A stretch of DNA of 64,000 nucleotides from positions 806,001 through 870,000 of the forward strand of contig NC_087251.1 in the NCBI RefSeq assembly GCF_037042905.1, in the 5' to 3' direction. Numbering within the stretch: the stretch's first letter is position 1; the number at the start of each line of letters is the position of its first letter. The position numbers and the translations under genes were made by a program. The notes under the pieces are model-generated. The model saw nothing but the letters and a program-made list of their open reading frames with translations, had not been told where the DNA came from and made no database searches. Source of the DNA: Lytechinus pictus (Eukaryota). Below are positions 3,581-49,929 of this stretch, one piece after another.

Positions 3581-4480
3581 GACACCGTTCTCAATATACT
3601 TTCTAAAACTGGTTTACTGGAAACCGGTTCAGGAAACCACTTTGGAAGATTGCTTTGCTAGCGTTCCCATTTGATCACCCGAAAGTGGTTTTCAAAACCA
3701 CTTCACGTAAAGCGGTCCTATTGCTATGGGAACACTCTCAGTGGGGCGACATGTTTTGCATGAAATTTGAAACCGCAGCGTAGGCATTCCACACACAGCG
3801 TGTGGAGTAGCACGCTTGAAATGTGTGAAGATCACTTCCTGAAGTGTCCTCACTAGGTGGTTTCAGACCGCCTCGAAGTTCGTCAGTTCCAGGTATTCTC
3901 TGATCGGGAGAGTTACCCCGATCAGAAAATACCAGGTATTTTGGTAATGTGAAAGCAAACTACGCGTAATTTCCCCGAAAGAAAATACCCGCTAAATAGT
4001 AGGTACTTGGCGAAATTACGAGAACTTTCGCGGGGATTTTTCCAAGGTCGCAGGTATTTTGGCAATGTGAAAGCAATTTACGGGAACTTTTAGCCCAGCG
4101 TGTCGTTGGGCGCGGGCGCCGTGGGTGGCTGCTGGGCTAGTGGTTTTGAATCTCGCGCCTTGCCTGCTTATTAGACCATACTGCGCATGCTCCTAACTTC
4201 AGGAATTTATCCCGAAGGGTATGTTTCGGGGCGGTGTGAATGCAGGAATAATTAATGGGTATTTTTTAGCCTAAAAATGTTCTAGTAATTTAACGGAGAT
4301 TCTTGTGATCGAGGCGGTTTGAAACCGCCTACGTACGCTAAAACCAGTTTAACGTGGCAAAGCGATCTCCAAAACTACATCGCGATGTGGTTTTCTGAAC
4401 CGGTTTGATGGATCGCTTCCAAGACTGCTTCGACCGTTCTCATTACACTTTAAACTAGTTTTCACTATGAGAACGGCGTC
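3581..4480. mobile_element. MITE (outer) carrying a nested MITE
   Basis: TIR GACACCGTTCTCA / TGAGAACGGCGTC; interrupted at 3856-4329. Confidence 0.7.
3856..4329 (+). mobile_element. TA-flanked MITE, copy 1
   Basis: TIR GGTGGTTTCAGACCGCCTCGA / TCGAGGCGGTTTGAAACCGCC with TA on both sides; near-identical inverted copy at 7268-7740. Confidence 0.85.
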
Positions 4481-5437: not shown

Positions 5438-7267
5438 CCTGAAGTTTAAATTCAGCTTTATAATCCTACTCTGCTCAACTTTCATTCATCCTATCTCCTT
5501 CCTTCCTGCCACCCCCCCCCCCCCCCAAACACACACACATACACACCTTCTGACTATATGCACTGTTCTTGGTACTGAAAGGTTGCATGACTGCACTGGA
5601 ATGAAAATGAAGAAGGGAAATGGGCCATTTAAATTAGCCTTATTACCTGGTAGTAACCTTTCCATCAATCATACAATAGTCATAACACCTGGACTATCAT
5701 AATGACCCCTGCATCCTTTTTGCCTTCTTGTTTCTATTCAGGGTACACATATCTACATGAATCATTTCAAGCACAAAAATATTAAAAATAAGATTTATAA
5801 TCTACCATTAACAATCAGCTTTGATAGCTGATTAGTCTTCTGGTCATATACTCAGTCCTGGCGGTCATACATGTAGTCATGGTTATGATGACCATGAAAA
5901 CAACAGCAAAATAACAGCAAAACAACAATATCAATCATCATAATCATAACAAATTGAAAAATGTATGAAAATATCAGTACCGGTATTCAATATAAATGTA
6001 AATCCTGAAGTGTTGGGGTTCAACACTATTCTGTTTGTCTTAAAATGTTCACATATTGTAATCGTTTTTTTTTTTACAGTATATCTGTTCCATATTGAGA
6101 TGGGGGCATCACAATGTGCTTTCGTAATTGTTATTTTGGTTAAAGGGAAGACATAATTCATAATTTAAATCTGTGATAGAAGAAATGATGGACTAAATCA
6201 GTAACAAAACACAGCTTAATTTCACCATTTAGGATAAATATTTTCTAGTATCTGAATGTAGTTCTCTCATAATAAACCTAACAAATAACGATAAAATCAT
6301 TCTACAAAAGTGTATTAAATAAATGTGATATTAAAATTTTGATAAATTGCTCTACATGTAATTACAAGCATAAAATGAATAGCACTGCAACCCCCTCCCC
6401 CACTCATTCATAATCAATGCTAGTACATGTATGCATATTACAGACATTGTGAATAGACCGGAAGCTACTTGGTCGCAAAACTAATTCAGAATATTTAAGA
6501 ACATAATTATATACAGGTACATGTATTGTTACATACTGACAGCACCAATAATTCACATTTGAGTGGGTGATTCCTGTTTAAATTAGTTTTACCTCATGTA
6601 AAGCAAATTATCTCACCCGAATCATGCAAATTTCTTCAATTTCTTGCTGTTTTTCTAAACAATTTGACAATGAATTTAAAGAGGTACACTACTATTAAAG
6701 AAACTACTGAAAACAACTTGGTCTCCCTTATGACAGCAACACAGGTGTCAGGTGCATGAAAATGACCTGAAAATCCAATCAGTTTATTAATCTCAACTCC
6801 TACCTAATGTGTCAGACATATGCAACAGTGAGCTTCTTCACATGAGTTTTTTTTTATATAAGCAATATGCATATTGAAGTATAAAGAAAATATATACTTG
6901 TATTTTGCTGATAAAAATTCTGATAGTGCATGTGAACAGAAATACAATGTAATTTAAAATTTGGAATTAATAATCAGAGATCTGAAACACTTTCAGCAAA
7001 ATACCATCATTTGCCTGTCTTGATCAAATCTACAAATATTTAATTACCATGGTATCCTTACAGGAAACATAGCTCATCACTTTATTATAATTAGAGTTAT
7101 GTACGTTAAGAACTACAACCTGCAATACAAGTGTCAACATTTCAAACTGTTCTTCAGAAAGGAATTAAATTCTTGTGTGAAAGCTTCCCATAACAGAAGT
7201 CTGTGGTTGTTCAAATGAAACTAATTCCCATCTGGTCTCTCCCTACAATCCAGAAAAAGTGACAATA

Positions 7268-7740
7268 GGCGGTTTCAAACCGCCTCGATCACAAGAATCC
7301 CCGTTAAATTACGAGAACATTTTTAGGCTAAAAAATACCCATTAATTATTCCTGCATTCACACCGCCCCGAAACATACCCTTCGGGATAAATTCCTGAAG
7401 TTAGGAGCATGCGCAGTATGGTTTAATAAGCAGGCAAGGCGCGAGATTCAAAACCACTAGCCCAGCAGCCACCCACGGCGCCTGCGCCCAACGACACACT
7501 GGGCTAAAAGTTCCCGTAAATTGCTTTCACATTGCCAAAATACCTGCGACCTTGGAAAAATCCCCGCGAAAGTTCTCGTAATTTCGCCAAGTACCTACTA
7601 TTTAGCGGGTATTTTCTTTCGGGAAATTACGCGTAGTTTGCTTTCACATTACCAAAATACCTGGTATTTTCTGATCGGGGTAACTTTCCCGATCAGAGAA
7701 TACCTGGAACTGACGAACTTCGAGGCGGTCTGAAACCACC
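7268..7740 (-). mobile_element. TA-flanked MITE, copy 2 (inverted relative to copy 1)
   Basis: Reverse complement of 3856-4329 with only about 7 differences seen by eye; TA flanks. Confidence 0.85.
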
Positions 7741-8480
7741 TAATGTCAGTGACTTGGAAGGATTGTGGTACATGTACATGGAGATAAAGTGACCATGCCA
7801 GTGTGCGCTAGGTCATAAGTTAGCATAGTTTAGCAATGTTGAACTCTAATATGGTTTCTTTTTATAGAAAAAAATGATGTACAAATATCATTTGAAATTG
7901 AATTAATTAATGACAATTTTAATTTTGAACAAGAACATTTCTTTGAAGATGAATTGCACAAGTCCTTTCACAGTCCCATTGCAGTACTATTGATAAATAC
8001 ATGTAGCTGAGGAATAGGGACAAACAAATGTTTACATCAGGTTCACAGAAAACAAGGTATTGTGAAATGTTTTGTTTTTCAATTTGTTCAAATGAGAAGT
8101 AACCTGGCATGACCTTAGAGCAGGATGCCAAGAGAGCCAGATGGTATACCCCAGCAGGGGGTGTGGCCATCCAATCTATGCTCCTCCTACCTCCAAAAGC
8201 ACATACTCCCTCATTGCATGAGAATTATATCTACTGTATGGACACACACAGAGAATAGAATCATACAAACTATTTGTCTGGTTCTTTTATCGAATTTACG
8301 ATGAATTCTGAAGTTGTAATATGTTTGAATAAAAAAGATAATACATATATAACTTAAATTTAAAACAAAACATTAAATAAACTTCATGTATACATACAGT
8401 TAATACACCAGGGGATAAACTATCTGATTAGACATGCATGTACATAACTTGCATGAAATGTTACCATTTTTCAGCCTTCC

Positions 8481-20994: not shown

Positions 20995-23587
20995 TTAAGT
21001 AGAATTTTACATTAGGAATAAGATTAGAACTTCCAGCAGTGTGCTACATTACAACAGCACTGGCATGACTAAAAACAACATACATGGATTAACCATAATG
21101 CAATCTTTATTTCTCATTAAACTTACACAAACTGTTCATGAATTTGGGAAATTTAATGATGAAAAAGATTCCCTGATGTGATGGAGACTAGATGGGTCCC
21201 AGATACTCATTAACTTTGTCCTCGATACCATGGGCTTGTGTTTGCTTGTCTTACACCATTTTCTAGGTCAGACGAAGGGTTCCTCTAATTATCTTGTTAC
21301 ATACCCGCTCCTGGGTTCTGCCATACATCCTTGGCATAATTAATAACTTCTAACAGCCATGAGTGCATGCATTCTTGACACTGGCTGATCTCATTTTAAA
21401 TTTGTTTTCCTTTCATGTTTGTTTGATTAATCTTGTCACTTTCAATGTATATGCAATGGCCTGGAAAAACGATGAATCATTGTCTTACATACTGTACAAC
21501 GAAAAGAGCACAAACTTGCAGGTTTGTATATACATGTGTATAGTGTGAAATAATTGTAAAGCTATGTTCTTAATAAAAGAAATGAAAAGTGATCAATGTT
21601 TACAAATGTAGCATTTACACATACTTGAAGGGTTCAACATTCATTCTTCAAAACTACACACTTCTATTTTCAAAGGAGTTTCTCTACAGGTGTATTATGT
21701 AATCAGTTGTTGGAGAGGGAGAAATTAATCTTGCTTTACTTAAAAACACAGTACCATAGGCCTATTCACACTGGAAATGCTGACATAATTCTAGATTCAT
21801 TAGGAAACTTGCAAGAGCCCTGTTCTTTAATAATAATCAGTCGTATTTCAATTCAAATTTCAATAATACATCACAAACTGCTTCAAAACTTTGATGTCAG
21901 TGCTTTCTATGACCTCGCACTATTATACTATCCAATTAAATCTTGCCATACAATATCAACTCTACTCATTTAGAATTGGTGTTTTTTTTTTTATTTCTAT
22001 CCTAGACAGGCCTACCAGCATGTTTACTGTATATATTCACATCATTTTTATTAGATTACACAACTGTGCGTGCACGTAGCCTATATTTTAAAAAATTATT
22101 ATGGAGTAGACAGTGCAGTACAAAACAGAAATTACTAAAGGTGGATAGATACTTTTGTAATATGTTTACAAGACCAATGGCCGCCAACAGGAAATGCATG
22201 ACTACAAAGCTATAAACCAAATTAGGCCTGAGCTTTCTAAAGAGCAAAACATTTCTTGAATAATCATGAATCCAAGATATGTATCAGTATAGGCTCTAGC
22301 ACTCTGTATTCAATATAATCTTATTAGGTCTGAATAAGGAATTCAGGAACGTCCACAGATTTAATCTTATTCATCAATCGATGTCATGATGCGTAGTGTA
22401 GAAGTGGCCATGTGAAGTTCATAATTTATATACCTAAATATACATATTGGCCATAAAATAAACCAATCTAGCACATTCCTGAGGATTAACACTAGATGAA
22501 TTCACTGATGTATTTTACATCCATGCATTACTACTGTGTAGCTCACAAGTTACTTGAACATATTTCTTTAAAAAATCAGTCATGAGTATATTTTGACAAT
22601 ACACACTGGAGTGAAACCAGCCAGATTGCCTGACAATTACTTTGAACGCATTCCTCAATCTTAAATTGATTGCTAGGCCTACAAAGCCATGTGAGCACTC
22701 AGGCTTCACCCAGTCAAAGTAAGCCAATAGACAAGCATGTAAATGGAGTAAATGCCCTTTGCCCCTTCTGATTATCAACATTCTATTCACAAACTGGTTG
22801 TGGTACTATTCACCAATATTCACGTCTTTGTGTTAAGTACATGCTGTGCTCCAAAGTAAAATCACCTCTCTAAAACTTCCAAGGTAAATCTGTGGATGCA
22901 TGGGTTCCATGAGATTTACAGACTACCAGCAAGCAAGATTTTACAATCCAAGGATAAAAATTAATTACACACGTTGTTGTACAAGTGTGATGAATTTCTG
23001 TTATCAACAATGAAAGACTAAACATGTACCTCAGTTGGAGTTTTATGGAAAAATGGCTAATATTAAAAACTTGTGTCACAGCCAAATGTTGAATAAAACA
23101 TGTATACAAATTGAATGGATATACTGTACATGTAACAGTATTAAAATGAAATGAAACTTACATTACACACATAAAGTCACATATTTCTGATTGTACAAGG
23201 CAATGAACTGTTGATTCAACAAACACTCTACATTGTAAAGAGCATTGAGGAACATAAAGGTCACAAGACTCACAAATTATAATCATTACTTTATTAAAAA
23301 AAAGTATAGAAATCCAAACGCCTTTTCATCTGTATATGTACAGGCCTTCATACTAATAGACAGGGTTTGAATAAATTGAATGTGTTGAAATTAATTCATA
23401 ATTCAATTTACACCAAAATCATGAACAAATTTAGAAAAATAATATCATAAATTTACAAAATCTCATCCACATGTAGGTCATCCCATTAAACAAACAATAA
23501 GTAATAAACATAGTTGAATCTGTTCTCTTGCTTCTTAAGGGAATGATTTTATTTTGTGATGTCACAGACGAGCAGCTCCTCCCTATG

Positions 23588-23755
23588 GGCATTGTTGTGG
23601 CGTGCACCTGTAATCCAAGCTGTGGGGAAGTTACAAATTGATGCAGAGGTTCGAGCCCTGGTCACCTCTTTCGGATGGTGACGTTCTTAAAGGTCGGTCC
23701 CAGACGTAAATAATCATATCTGATTGATACACGTCTGACAAAACTCAAACTCAAA
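23588..23755 (+). mobile_element. SINE with 7SL(SRP RNA)-like head, B box, 3' stem-loop and (AAACTC)n tail
   Basis: GTGGCGTGCACCTGTAATCCAAGCT at 23597-23621; B box GGTTCGAGCCC at 23648; hairpin CAGACGT..ACGTCTG at 23701-23737; short TAT(G) flanking repeat; sits inside a degenerate MITE. Confidence 0.65.
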
Positions 23756-25116
23756 TATGAATGTGATATGTTATTTCCCAAAATGACATTTTCTATTAAA
23801 AAAATGAAAGTGATTTTATTTGTGCAGGGGATACCGGTATATTAAGAGACACATCATTTCTTCCCTCCCCCCCCCCCCCCTTGTAAAAGAAATATAGTTT
23901 TCTTAATCACATCCCATTAAAAGAGTTAAACTTATGAAATAAATACTGAACATACATGTACGCTCGTCTGTGACATCAAACATTAATTTTCATAACATTA
24001 CCACTTATTGCTTTCCATGACTTGATTAAAAGTTATTTTAATTGAAAGCCACACTTAATTGTTACTGATCCAGATTTTTATATCATCCAAAGTTCATTAA
24101 ACTTGACAAAAACATTTCATTTGAGATTTTAAACTCATGTCATGTAGGCCTGAAGAAAACAAATCCCTAACTCTGTTATTCTACAAAAAAAATTTATTTA
24201 AACTTCACCACTATTTTCGCTCTGTTTCATGCTTTTATTAAAACCACCTTATCGTCAGGTTTAACTTCCACTATAATGCAGGTCGCAGCAATTCTCTGTC
24301 AAATTATTTTAAAGAAGTTGAAAAAATAAGGTTGAAAACAATCAAAGTTTTAATGTTCAATATAGGTCTAAAGACTCAACTTTTTATTCACTTGATTAGA
24401 GCAACTTTATGAAATAACAAATGCAATGAACTCTGATTGGTATATGATTGGAGTTTACTGCAATAAAAACTATCAAAATACAATCACAAGCAGTCCAAAG
24501 ACTGAAATATGTGACTGTTTACAAAATAGAGTCATAATAAAAATATGAAGAAAACATTACAAGTAAATATTCAAATACACCAATTCATACATGTACAAAT
24601 GAAAAAAAAAGGATCATAAATACATAAACTGAAGGAACTGGAAATGAGACCCAAAGAGAAAAAGGAAATTGGGGATTGGGGGGCAAAACTGTCCAATAAC
24701 AAGAGCCCCAAAATCAATGTAAAGGAACCCAAAACCACACACATATCCTAAATCTCAGAGGGTCTCAGTCCTGTTTACAGTTATGTACATGCAGAGGGGC
24801 AAATAAAGTAGACAAATGGAAAGAAAGATATAGGATGAAAGAGAGCAAGTGGATGAGAGCCAGAAATTAGTTAAAATAAAAAGGAAGACAAAAGATGAGA
24901 AGAGAAATAGAGGCAACCTTCAGAAAAGAAAACTAATCATAAAATACAAGATATTTAGCAATGATAACTAAAGAAGGGGGAATATATTAAACAATGCATT
25001 TACATAGCAACCGGAACAGGCACAAAAAGGGATAATGGAGATCGAGATAGAAGCTCCCATTTTAACATTCTCATGATGTGGTGATGTTTTACTAAAAACA
25101 AAAATAATTTACTAAC

Positions 25117-25387
25117 CTCGACATAATCCATGTGCATCAGGATTCAACGAATCTCCGACTGCAACAATAAGTTCACATACAAATCCATTATCACACTGCC
25201 CATACTTTTTAAATCGTCCTCCACAAGATTGCCCATCAAGTTTGGCACACTCCTTGCAACATTGGCAAACATCTTCAACAACGCCACCTTGACAAGACAG
25301 TGTCGGGCACTTCTCCCGTTCGCAGGTGCCGCACGACAGGGCAGCTCCAGTTGCTACCAGAGAAAGAAATAACACCAAGAACTTCAT
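25117..25387 (-). CDS. CRIM1: CRIM1-like (cysteine-rich motor neuron 1) coding exon 1: signal peptide plus IGFBP N-terminal domain
   Basis: ATG at 25387 in GCCAAGATG context. MKFLVLFLSLVATGAA is a hydrophobic signal, followed by a 12-Cys IGFBP domain (CQCCKECA...CGG...GQCD...C). Phase-1 donor G|GTTAGT at 25116. Confidence 0.88.
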
Positions 25388-25739
25388 CTTGGCATGTAAT
25401 GGTTCATCTGAAATTTGTTGCAAAATACAAGAATAGGCCGTATATAAAATTATCCAAATTGATTCCACGGGAGTAGGCCTTCAACACGGATATCCAATAA
25501 GTACACTACAGTAGATTAAATTATCTTCCTCTCACTCTCTATCAACTCAATCTTCCAGAGATCCTGATCGCATCATCATCAAGAACCTCTTCATCCAATT
25601 GATGCATTTTGCGACTCTTGCCTCCGTGCTACAAGATAACGTTAGTGCTCCTCCTGAGAGGTCCAACCTCCACTCTCGATTTTTATCTTAGCTGGGTGGC
25701 AGTCCTAGACCAGCGTCGCGTTTTCTTTGGATAACAGTC

Positions 25740-48564: not shown

Positions 48565-48910
48565 GATGGTAAGGAACCCTTGAGTGTGCGGTTAGGGCAC
48601 TCCTAGTACCAATCATGCCAATGAGGTCCAAACATTAATATGTATGGACCTCATAGGCCTACACCAACACAAATGTTTATATGAAATTGTGCCTCATGTA
48701 GCCTTCCAATGAAATGTCCACCCACAGCCAATATTTGACCTCATTCCAGCCTTGGTCTTGGCCATGGACAAGCCAACCATGTCCTTTGCCTTGCACCTGA
48801 TGGACCGGATAGCACTGGACACAAGAGTGCAAAATTATGAAATTTTAACTCAATGTTGTCTTTTGGTTTTCTTTCATCAGATCCAGTCTGGTGGGTATAA
48901 AGATAGCAAC

Positions 48911-49832
48911 ATGAATTGGCTACGGAGGAACCTGACTGTTGAGCCAGTCTTATTTTTCTATATGCTTGGATCCTTCCTGCAGTACCTTGCCTTGCAACAG
49001 CTCCTCCTGGAGAAGGTGTGCTTTCAAGAAGTCAATGACACTGTCATTTGTGCCAATTTATCTGCATACAAAGATGAAGAGGAGACTGTTCAAAAAAGGA
49101 CTTCATACTGGCTGATAGTGCTGAACTTGGCTCTGACTGTGCCATCAGTGATATCTACTCTAGTACTTGGGGCCTGGACAGACAGAGTTGGAAGAAGAGT
49201 AGCCATGGTGTTGCCTTCTTTAGGAGCAGTTATAAATGGTGTATGCTTGATTTTCAGTGCCATCTATCTGGAGCTTTCAGTAGGAATCATGATCTTAGGG
49301 TCAGTGATAATGGGTGTACTTGGAGCATATGGAACAATACTAGCAGCAGTGTTTAGTTACCTGGGCGATATCACCAAAGAAAGGACACGCACAAGAAGGT
49401 TTGGATTCCTTGAGGCGATGACATTTACAGGAAGCTTTGTGGGGTTGCTGACATGTGGTATAGTCATTGACAACCTTGGCTATGTTGCAGCGTTCATCTA
49501 CTACATCTGCTGTAATACTGTTGTTGTCCTCTATACCTTGTTATGGTTAAGAGAATCTAGCAGTTATGCTGTAAGTCAAGGTTTATATACCTCCAAACCA
49601 ACCAACGATGCACTCCAGTCAGGGGAAACAGACCCTGGTGGAACTAATGAAGTTTTTCCCAAGCTCGATGAGGAAAGGGGATGGTCCTGCAAAATATCAT
49701 GTCTACAATTATGTCAGTTACAAAGTTTAGGGAAATCATTTATAACTGTGGGTAGAGAGAGACCCAATAAACAAAGAGTACAACTCATTCTACTGCTGAT
49801 CTGCCTCTTTACTTTCCAGCTTGTTGGTACTG
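48911..49832 (+). CDS. SLC46 (proton-coupled folate transporter / SLC46A3-like) MFS transporter, first coding exon
   Basis: Acceptor ctttcatcag| at 48880, ATG at 48911. Motifs VEPVLF (TM1), luminal loop with two Cys and sequons NDT/NLS, MFS motif A GAWTDRVGRR, YLGDIT and LEAM. Phase-1 donor G|GTAAGT. Confidence 0.92.
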
Positions 49833-49929
49833 GTAAGTACGTCAAACCACTTTTCAATAGATTTGTGTAGTGTCGACTCCTAAAGACTGTAACATCTATA
49901 AACTTTTTACAAGGATCAACCTGTTCTGG

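Follow-up and report, generated by a model that had tools for sequence, protein, structure and literature searches.

In the literature to 2026, as far as the available portions of PMC7245038 and PMC13023118 report, SINEs derived from 7SL RNA occur only in vertebrates (Euarchontoglires, hagfish and shrew mole), and all of them keep both ends of 7SL RNA around a central deletion. The same portions take this retention of both ends as a need for the whole Alu domain. In Alu, B1 and Tu of Euarchontoglires and in Urop of the shrew mole, the 5' Alu subdomain stands at the 5' end of the RNA, with its U-turn and loop-loop partners, a central deletion of ~183 nt keeps both 7SL ends, the tails are poly(A) and the LINE is L1 (PMC13023118, text available in part). 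The hagfish element SINE1-1_EBu (Ebu1-1) is an independent 7SL-headed chimera with an older SINE (Kojima 2020, PMC7245038). According to the accessible part of that paper it is young, numbers 2,363 copies and ends in a microsatellite; its partner is not L1 but an RTE LINE, its target duplications are ~17 bp long, and it holds 7SL nt 1-96 together with the 7SL 3' end, with the full Alu domain and the A and B boxes of 7SL.

A smaller piece of 7SL has been studied in an engineered system. The consulted sections of a preprint (Moldovan et al., PMC11760393) describe SA46/AY46, a synthetic minimal Alu domain of 46 nt expressed as a polymerase II construct with L1 ORF2p in human HeLa cells and not a natural family, and report SRP9/14 binding by this 46-nt 5' Alu domain together with 86% of the retrotransposition activity of Alu. 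Two further groups bear comparison in the excerpts available of PMC4758252 and PMC4824008: the Deu/Nin SINEs (AmnSINE1, SINE2-3_SP and the mollusc Nin SINEs), whose Nin domain starts with a block of ~34 nt that a block of the element described here resembles, and the composite 5S-tRNA heads, in which the head of Deu-SINEs has likewise been replaced by another polymerase III RNA, 5S rRNA (PMC4824008).

The element described here, from the sea urchin Lytechinus pictus, is a SINE with a 7SL-derived head, and it is not of the Alu, B1, Urop or Ebu1-1 type, from which its 3' end and B box differ. It has no central deletion that keeps both 7SL ends, and no poly(A) tail or L1 partner; instead, (AC)n follows a stem-loop of the type found in RNase H-bearing LINEs. 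It resembles Ebu1-1 in its independent, chimeric make-up with a probable older SINE, its likely non-L1 partner, microsatellite tail, youth and copy number, but has only 47 nt of 7SL, a foreign B box, a Nin/Deu-like block, an I/Nimb-type stem-loop and target duplications of 4-13 nt. Its 7SL piece is nearly that of SA46/AY46 (47 versus 46 nt). Compared with the Deu/Nin SINEs, it shows no more of the domain than a block like its beginning, and its replacement head is 7SL. Its head tracks the urchin's own 7SL, and the element does not share descent with Alu, B1, Tu or Urop. An earlier note on this DNA had named Euarchontoglires and hagfish as the known cases; Urop now joins that list (PMC13023118, relevant part).

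Structure and insertion site of the window copy

The window is the whole stretch of DNA that was analysed, 64,000 nucleotides in length. At 23588-23755 it contains a 168-bp insert flanked on both sides by TATG (Table 1). Without the insert, the two flanks form an uninterrupted alignment with three homologues of an older AT-rich repeat (L118, L119 and a copy at 61.6-62.0 kb of the window), L119 giving the best alignment across the empty-site junction. The insert had been read as splitting an older MITE: the TATG pair and the empty-site alignment bear out insertion into an older repeat, but the MITE nature of that repeat is unproven, its 17-nt inverted pair being perfect while the wider inverted alignment was matched or beaten by 14 of 300 shuffles. 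The host repeat is dispersed (40 matches from the best 40 of 49 candidates) and, judged from the 68-92% identity of the 39 non-self matches, it is old.

Table 1. Features of the window copy and its insertion site (window coordinates).
Feature	Position	Strand	Basis or remarks
Left target-site duplication TATG	23584..23587	+	Empty-site alignment with L118, L119 and window 61.6-62.0 kb; last 2 nt overlap the element start
7SL-derived head, 5' Alu subdomain (7SL nt 1-~45)	23586..23631	+	Closing helix, helix 3, U-turn 23609-13, helix 4
Linker and tRNA-type T-arm/B box	23632..23664	+	GGTTCGA at 23648-54; not from the 7SL body
Block like the 5' start of the Nin/Deu SINE domain	23665..23701	+	L047 versus L131, 28/34
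Two-tier 3' stem-loop	23701..23737	+	Outer stem 23702-07/23731-36, inner stem 23711-16/23721-26, 3x4 internal loop
Terminal A/C-rich stretch	23738..23755	+	CTCAAA duplicated in the window copy; T(AC)n follows in the family
Right target-site duplication TATG	23756..23759	+	Empty-site alignment
Older AT-rich dispersed repeat hosting the insertion	23547..23979 (approximate)		17-nt inverted pair 23557-73 / about 23963-79

The window copy is slightly decayed: helix 3 of the head and the body have each acquired a 3-nt insertion and a single substitution. When 801 bases around the copy were scanned with Rfam, neither an SRP nor a tRNA match came up at E≤10. Direct comparison of its head with host 7SL gave 26 identities in 28 columns (score 44, reached by 0 of 2000 dinucleotide shuffles), which agrees with the 7SL-like head proposed in the earlier note. 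The UGUNR U-turn motif reported there is present, as are the B-box motif, which begins 27 nt past the 25-mer quoted as the head, and the terminal stem-loop (23701-07/23731-37). Two other points in that description do not extend to the family. The GTCACC/GGTGAC hairpin exists in the window copy, but its 6 bp require a base that deviates from the family majority, and the AAACTC repeat that had been taken for the SINE tail is private to this copy. The B-box spacing is similar to that of a 7SL-internal motif (27 versus 25 nt), but this reflects no homology, SINE sequence beyond nt 45 having no significant match in the rest of host 7SL.

Family size, age and retroposition marks

A search of the host genome (812 Mb, 368 contigs) with the element gave at least 47 matches, mostly at 91-97% identity, when the best 40 of 1,500 candidates were scored. 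Motif searches of the whole genome found a head 30-mer 1,295 times and a tail 30-mer 1,430 times (≤3 mismatches each) and a core 24-mer 1,597 times (≤2 mismatches); every reversed-pattern control gave 0. The window copy belongs to a young family of about 1,300-1,600 copies, and the copy-number check that the earlier note had suggested thus finds a multi-copy element. Copies are scattered over many large contigs, mostly full length and nearly identical; the element is about 160-190 nt long and its family terminus is T(AC)n. Thirty loci selected by the core comprised 25 with a full 7SL head, five that were 5'-truncated and none with a tRNA head, and their median substitution from a young copy was 1.2%, a value biased low because the loci had been picked for an exact core match. 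When 15 loci were selected by the head, 14 ran into the same body and tail and one stopped after the B box, a uniform chimeric structure unlike that of 7SL retrocopies. An older subfamily (L121/L123, one insertion seen twice) has a head without the extra A of the young form.

Target duplications are short (4-13 nt). Among 91 distinct copies, 79 are solo and 12 lie at tandem junctions; with the latter and AC-only matches left out, duplications of at least 5 nt flank 28 of the 79 solo copies (7.4% in control pairs), of at least 6 nt 18 (1.7%) and of at least 7 nt eight (0.4%), and 40 of the 79 have none. A first count (23/78 against 18% in the control) was discarded as confounded by tandem junctions and AC runs. 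The general marks of a SINE are all seen, namely target duplications, a simple-repeat tail, 5' truncations and a LINE-like 3' end, and the element is short (<1 kb), interspersed and well represented against the SINEBase threshold of ≥100 copies.

Some copies form head-to-tail tandem arrays of 2-6 units (L007, L010, L039, L041-L044 and L098). In L010 a 9-nt duplication brackets the whole six-copy array, as if it were one insertion event. A truncated SINE tail also sits in every one of the 12 or more units of a 1.7-kb tandem repeat at G000:C18:3.15-3.17 Mb. In a screen of 24 sequencing runs, 14, all from one organism, held 87-93% of the words searched; six mixed-sample RNA runs held fewer than five words, and these six are no evidence on range or expression.

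A family so young and abundant would be collected by automatic repeat finders, and Repbase does hold sea-urchin SINE2 families (PMC3747384, as far as its available text goes); it might therefore already be catalogued in Repbase, Dfam or SINEBase, either under SINE1 or as a sea-urchin SINE that went unrecognised or was labelled tRNA. This appears improbable. The sea-urchin SINEs listed in the part of PMC3747384 at hand are all tRNA-labelled, and SINE2-1_SP and SINE2-2_SP have ordinary tRNA heads in the portion of the published supplement that we consulted. A 2026 review records, in its accessible sections, no 7SL-derived SINE outside supraprimates and hagfish before Urop (PMC13023118). Our search, confined to papers and mostly to openly accessible ones, found no report of such a family or of any echinoderm 7SL-headed SINE.

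Origin of the 7SL-derived head

The Rfam SRP model identified seven full 7SL genes in the genome (272-283 bits) and 18 weak hits; all 13 of the weak hits that were cut out proved to be copies of the SINE. SINE copy L047 is identical to 7SL gene L031 in 38 of 41 columns, a score reached by 0 of 2000 dinucleotide shuffles. Another 7SL gene, L037, is a divergent full-length paralogue on the minus strand at G000:C12:4895279-4895577. The SINE head matches it in 42 of 47 columns (89%), the first 30 nt being identical. L037 differs from the other six genes at nt 3 and at the closing-helix pairing partner of that nucleotide, and the SINE carries both changes of this compensatory pair, that at nt 3 in 92 of 96 copies; local scores fail to separate L037 from the other 7SL genes (65 versus 65). 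Past this head the likeness ends: from nt 45 on, the SINE aligns with 7SL nt 45-300 no better than shuffled sequence does (458/500 and 463/500 shuffles reach the score). These comparisons of sequence show that nt 1-47 of the SINE derive from the 5' end of a host 7SL RNA gene and end at the edge of the 5' Alu subdomain. The donor was likely a gene of the L037 type, as the paired changes suggest; alternatively, L037 might itself have been converted by the SINE.

The head is nearer to host 7SL than to tRNA, as the earlier note had held, with a local score of 67 against 10-14 for 16 tRNA-Lys genes, the only tRNA type compared, for which the scores are at shuffle level. ARAGORN at -ps95 found no tRNA among 101 sequences, and relaxed settings (-ps80 and -ps85) gave a weak tRNA-Pro fold in one of 11 and one of seven sequences. 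Over these 101 sequences and the tRNA-Lys comparison, the tRNA-derived 5' head with a D arm that marks SINE2 elements is absent, and the 5' part derives from 7SL RNA, as in SINE1 in Kojima's sense. The available text of PMC3531059 gives the SINEBase rule as at least 60% identity over at least 60 nt of tRNA, 5S or 7SL; the overlap here is 47 nt at 89%, shorter than that rule asks.

That the Rfam SRP model misses the window copy on its own, and that relaxed ARAGORN occasionally draws a tRNA-Pro fold, could suggest a tRNA-derived head, a chance lookalike of 7SL or contamination with vertebrate Alu or B1. Such a reading is extremely improbable, and is effectively refuted by the identity of the first 30 nt with the host gene L037 and by the shuffle test (0/2000). 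The copies moreover lie on many large contigs, with target duplications and inside host repeats, and in body and tail they match parts of SINEs and LINEs of the host.

At G000:C10:7.91-7.92 Mb (L099/L100), each gene in a cluster of three 7SL genes has a SINE copy about 35-45 nt upstream, apparently one insertion that was duplicated along with the 7SL gene.

The B box and the middle block

The B box of the SINE was not inherited from the 7SL body, in which the GRTTCRA motif is absent and which does not align with the B-box region of the SINE. In six of the seven 7SL genes (L031-L036), GGTTCGA lies 16-40 nt past the gene end; L037 has no such motif within about 300 nt. This tRNA-like B box, located beyond the terminator of the six genes, may be a downstream extragenic promoter; we found nothing on a downstream B box of 7SL genes in the literature searched. 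A plain 7SL retrocopy would be without a B box in the urchin, and we infer that only a chimera gaining one could spread.

The acquired segment may have come from a tRNA or tRNA-headed SINE or from the 3' flank of the 7SL genes themselves. It resembles a tRNA variable loop plus T arm (against tRNA-Lys, 1-12 of 2000 shuffles do as well) and, with the B box unscored, is about equally like the 7SL 3' flanks. By the route through the 7SL locus, a deletion in a read-through transcript or gene copy would have joined nt 1-47 to the 3' flank before the Nin and LINE tail was gained. The presence of GGTTCGA beyond six of the seven genes speaks for it, and the flanks of L035 and L036 score 17-19 (0-1/300 shuffles) against 10-18 (3-30/300) for tRNA-Lys genes, which make up the whole tRNA side of this comparison. 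We nevertheless regard this route as rather unlikely: L037, the paralogue closest to the SINE head, lacks the motif, and the older subfamily L121/L123 is nearer to the tRNA variable loop plus T arm (14; 4/300) than to the flanks (7; 44-48/300).

The middle block (SINE nt 81-114) matches L131 from the same genome in 28 of 34 columns, 15 of which were fixed by the search pattern. L131 (G000:C10:20595480-20595960) is a tRNA-headed SINE with a Nin/Deu-type block that has lost its 3' part. Compared by eye with the alignments in the supplementary figures at hand (PMC7245038 Fig. S4; PMC4758252 Figs S7-S9), the block resembles the start of the Deu/Nin domain. Of the Nin (about 120 nt) or Deu central domain the element shows only this 34-nt start-like block, again by eye against the published consensus. 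An origin in the Meta domain was rejected, as in BivaMD-SINE1 the block lies past the Meta domain and its visual alignment is with the beginning of Deu/Nin. No parent combining a tRNA head with this body was matched by a search with one A-box variant or by a second genome search; a third gave 18 matches against 12 in the control, which resolved into the older subfamily and one tRNA-headed Nin-type SINE. A tandem cluster at G000:C4:9.70-9.74 Mb contains about 40 tRNA matches, and all 11 that were sampled are tRNA-Lys.

The 3' end and its LINE partner

The window also carries a broken LINE on the minus strand at about 35.5-42.7 kb. It has an ORF1, where zinc-knuckle-like motifs can be made out by eye, and domains for endonuclease, reverse transcriptase and RNase H. 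Its relatives in the genome number 138 matches, several with open frames of 1,230-1,300 aa, and close relatives have open frames of 1,264 aa. This LINE shows no significant match to the SINE tail (20/200 shuffles) and has no stem-loop motif. The 3' ends of 14 representative LINEs were compared over 350-430 nt past the stop codon, the whole extent covered in each. Two of the 14 families (L145 and L146/L074) end in a two-tier stem-loop, in which an outer and an inner stem of 6 bp each are separated by a 3x4 internal loop and capped by a loop of 3-4 nt. The SINE tail folds in the same way, with eight of 12 pairs identical and four changed on both sides.

A descriptor for which only the two LINE ends were used matches the SINE tail and none of 200,000 shuffles; the corresponding chance of 3e-7 after allowing for 14 families overstates the case somewhat, the descriptor having been written after the likeness was seen. 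In 721 kb of genome DNA it matches only 94 SINE and two LINE ends. The LINE-type form of the stem-loop occurs 180 times genome-wide (control 0), at least 11 of them directly 3' of ORF2 matches. Plain local alignment of the SINE tail with the 14 LINE 3' UTRs was mostly non-significant (56/300 and 36/300 shuffles for L145), and the top score by sequence alone belongs to another family, L148 (0/300). Genome searches found no LINE with the exact tail of the SINE. A tail-only search gave 71 matches against eight in the control, by eye mostly truncated or indel-bearing SINE copies, with no LINE among five inspected; two apparently LINE-like tail variants turned out to be SINE copies. The search for a LINE sharing the 3' end, as the earlier note had advised, has thus produced the stem-loop, in two RNase H-bearing families, but not the exact tail.

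The two stem-loop families are 38-39% identical to the window LINE in their C-terminal part, and the window LINE contains APE, RT and RNase H domains. On Pfam domain content we provisionally label them as I/Nimb-type. Nimb occurs in sea urchins according to the part of PMC4758252 available, and the accessible text of PMC11481361 places it among SINE partners in bivalves. In L074 (positions 1400-1565), a 5'-truncated SINE copy begins about 11 nt after the 3' end of an RNase H-bearing LINE; this junction could be a template switch, but a 5-nt duplication, noted by eye, is consistent with a separate insertion.

Retroposition model and fold of the head

The element comprises four modules: the 5' end of 7SL, a tRNA-type B box, a short Nin/Deu-like block, and a LINE-mimicking 3' stem-loop followed by (AC)n. 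We consider it highly probable that this anatomy is that of a non-autonomous retroposon (SINE) with a LINE-dependent mechanism. The head, copy-number and LINE-end results favour the independent 7SL-headed SINE with a gained B box and a LINE-derived tail that the earlier note had proposed; what changes in its picture is that the head is limited to the 5' Alu subdomain, the B-box segment came from outside the 7SL body, the middle is Nin/Deu-like and the tail repeat is (AC)n. RNA polymerase III would in good likelihood transcribe the SINE from the 7SL-derived A-box region and the acquired B box. It is very likely that an I/Nimb-type LINE would bind the stem-loop and, starting from the (AC)n end, would copy the RNA by target-primed reverse transcription. 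At its birth, the 5' end of a 7SL RNA, probably of the L037 type, may with reasonable probability have replaced the front of an older SINE with B box, Nin block and LINE tail by template switching.

The elements of the 5' Alu subdomain are recognisable in the primary sequence: among 86 independent copies the closing helix is intact in 80, helix 3 in 81 and helix 4 in 77, the G4/U23/G24 triad is kept in 78 and the loop-loop pairing in 82. The triad and the loop pairing are described for human Alu RNAs in the available part of PMC12265939. Recurrent length variants of the head sit in the helix-4 loop, which is shorter by 2 nt in the commonest young variant (38/86). The lowest-energy fold given by ViennaRNA, which cannot model the pseudoknot, is not the Alu fold for whole copies or for the commonest head variant, in which an alternative helix forms. 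Conservation of the head among young copies is due to a few master copies and not to selection on each copy.

By analogy with the model for Alu, the head might, with slightly better than even probability, fold as an Alu 5' domain, bind SRP9/14 and bring the RNA to ribosomes making LINE protein. An exon-like match to SRP14 in the host genome scores 30.6 bits, over the cut-off, with one stop inside. The head could instead be retained only as part of the promoter, for its A-box region and start site, with SRP9/14 playing no role and the LINE finding the RNA by its tail; the 47-nt boundary would then mark a template switch of the reverse transcriptase at the edge of a folded domain. This is a serious contender, if somewhat short of an even chance. 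The tail does bear a LINE-type recognition stem-loop, and recognition of that kind suffices for ordinary tRNA-headed SINEs; the shortened loop and non-Alu predicted fold of the commonest young variant, and the damaged helix 3 of the window copy, point the same way. Against it, all recurrent variants except one (two copies, with a changed loop triplet) retain the loop-loop partners, most also retain the closing helix and the triad, and the piece kept coincides with the experimentally minimal 46-nt domain (PMC11760393, sections consulted).

Returning to the SRP9/14 model, we tentatively suggest, at a little under even likelihood, that this family, as a 7SL-headed SINE, has no precedent outside vertebrates and amounts to a natural 'minimal Alu'. 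In it, exactly the SRP9/14-binding 47 nt would have been kept, ribosome targeting would give access to a stem-loop-recognising I/Nimb LINE, and only by acquiring a B box could it have become a SINE, the B boxes of the host 7SL genes lying outside the transcript. The advantage of SRP9/14 would in that case be general and independent of L1 or poly(A). A fourth origin of 7SL SINEs, in an invertebrate and with the 5' subdomain only, supports the cell-culture result that 46 nt suffice (PMC11760393, as reported in the part consulted). It also makes a standing question testable, namely whether a SINE gains from SRP9/14 binding when a LINE-specific stem-loop already secures its recognition. Such a test is practical because the family is young and the host is an experimental sea urchin whose genome has intact-looking LINE open frames.

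Other features of the window

The SINE copy alters no gene function in the window. An exon of an IGFBP-domain protein lies at 25112-25480 on the minus strand, and an exon of an SLC46/proton-coupled folate transporter-like MFS protein at 48713-49870 on the plus strand; the transporter exon is 100% identical to a database protein of L. pictus, and after it the nearest named matches belong to further echinoderms and to a hemichordate. At 8.5, 20.4, 26.1, 31.4 and 56.7 kb several MITE-like families recur. Long inverted repeats at 3851-4331 and 7266-7745 (361 nt at 98% and 134 nt at 96%), about 2.9 kb apart, resemble a young DNA transposon.
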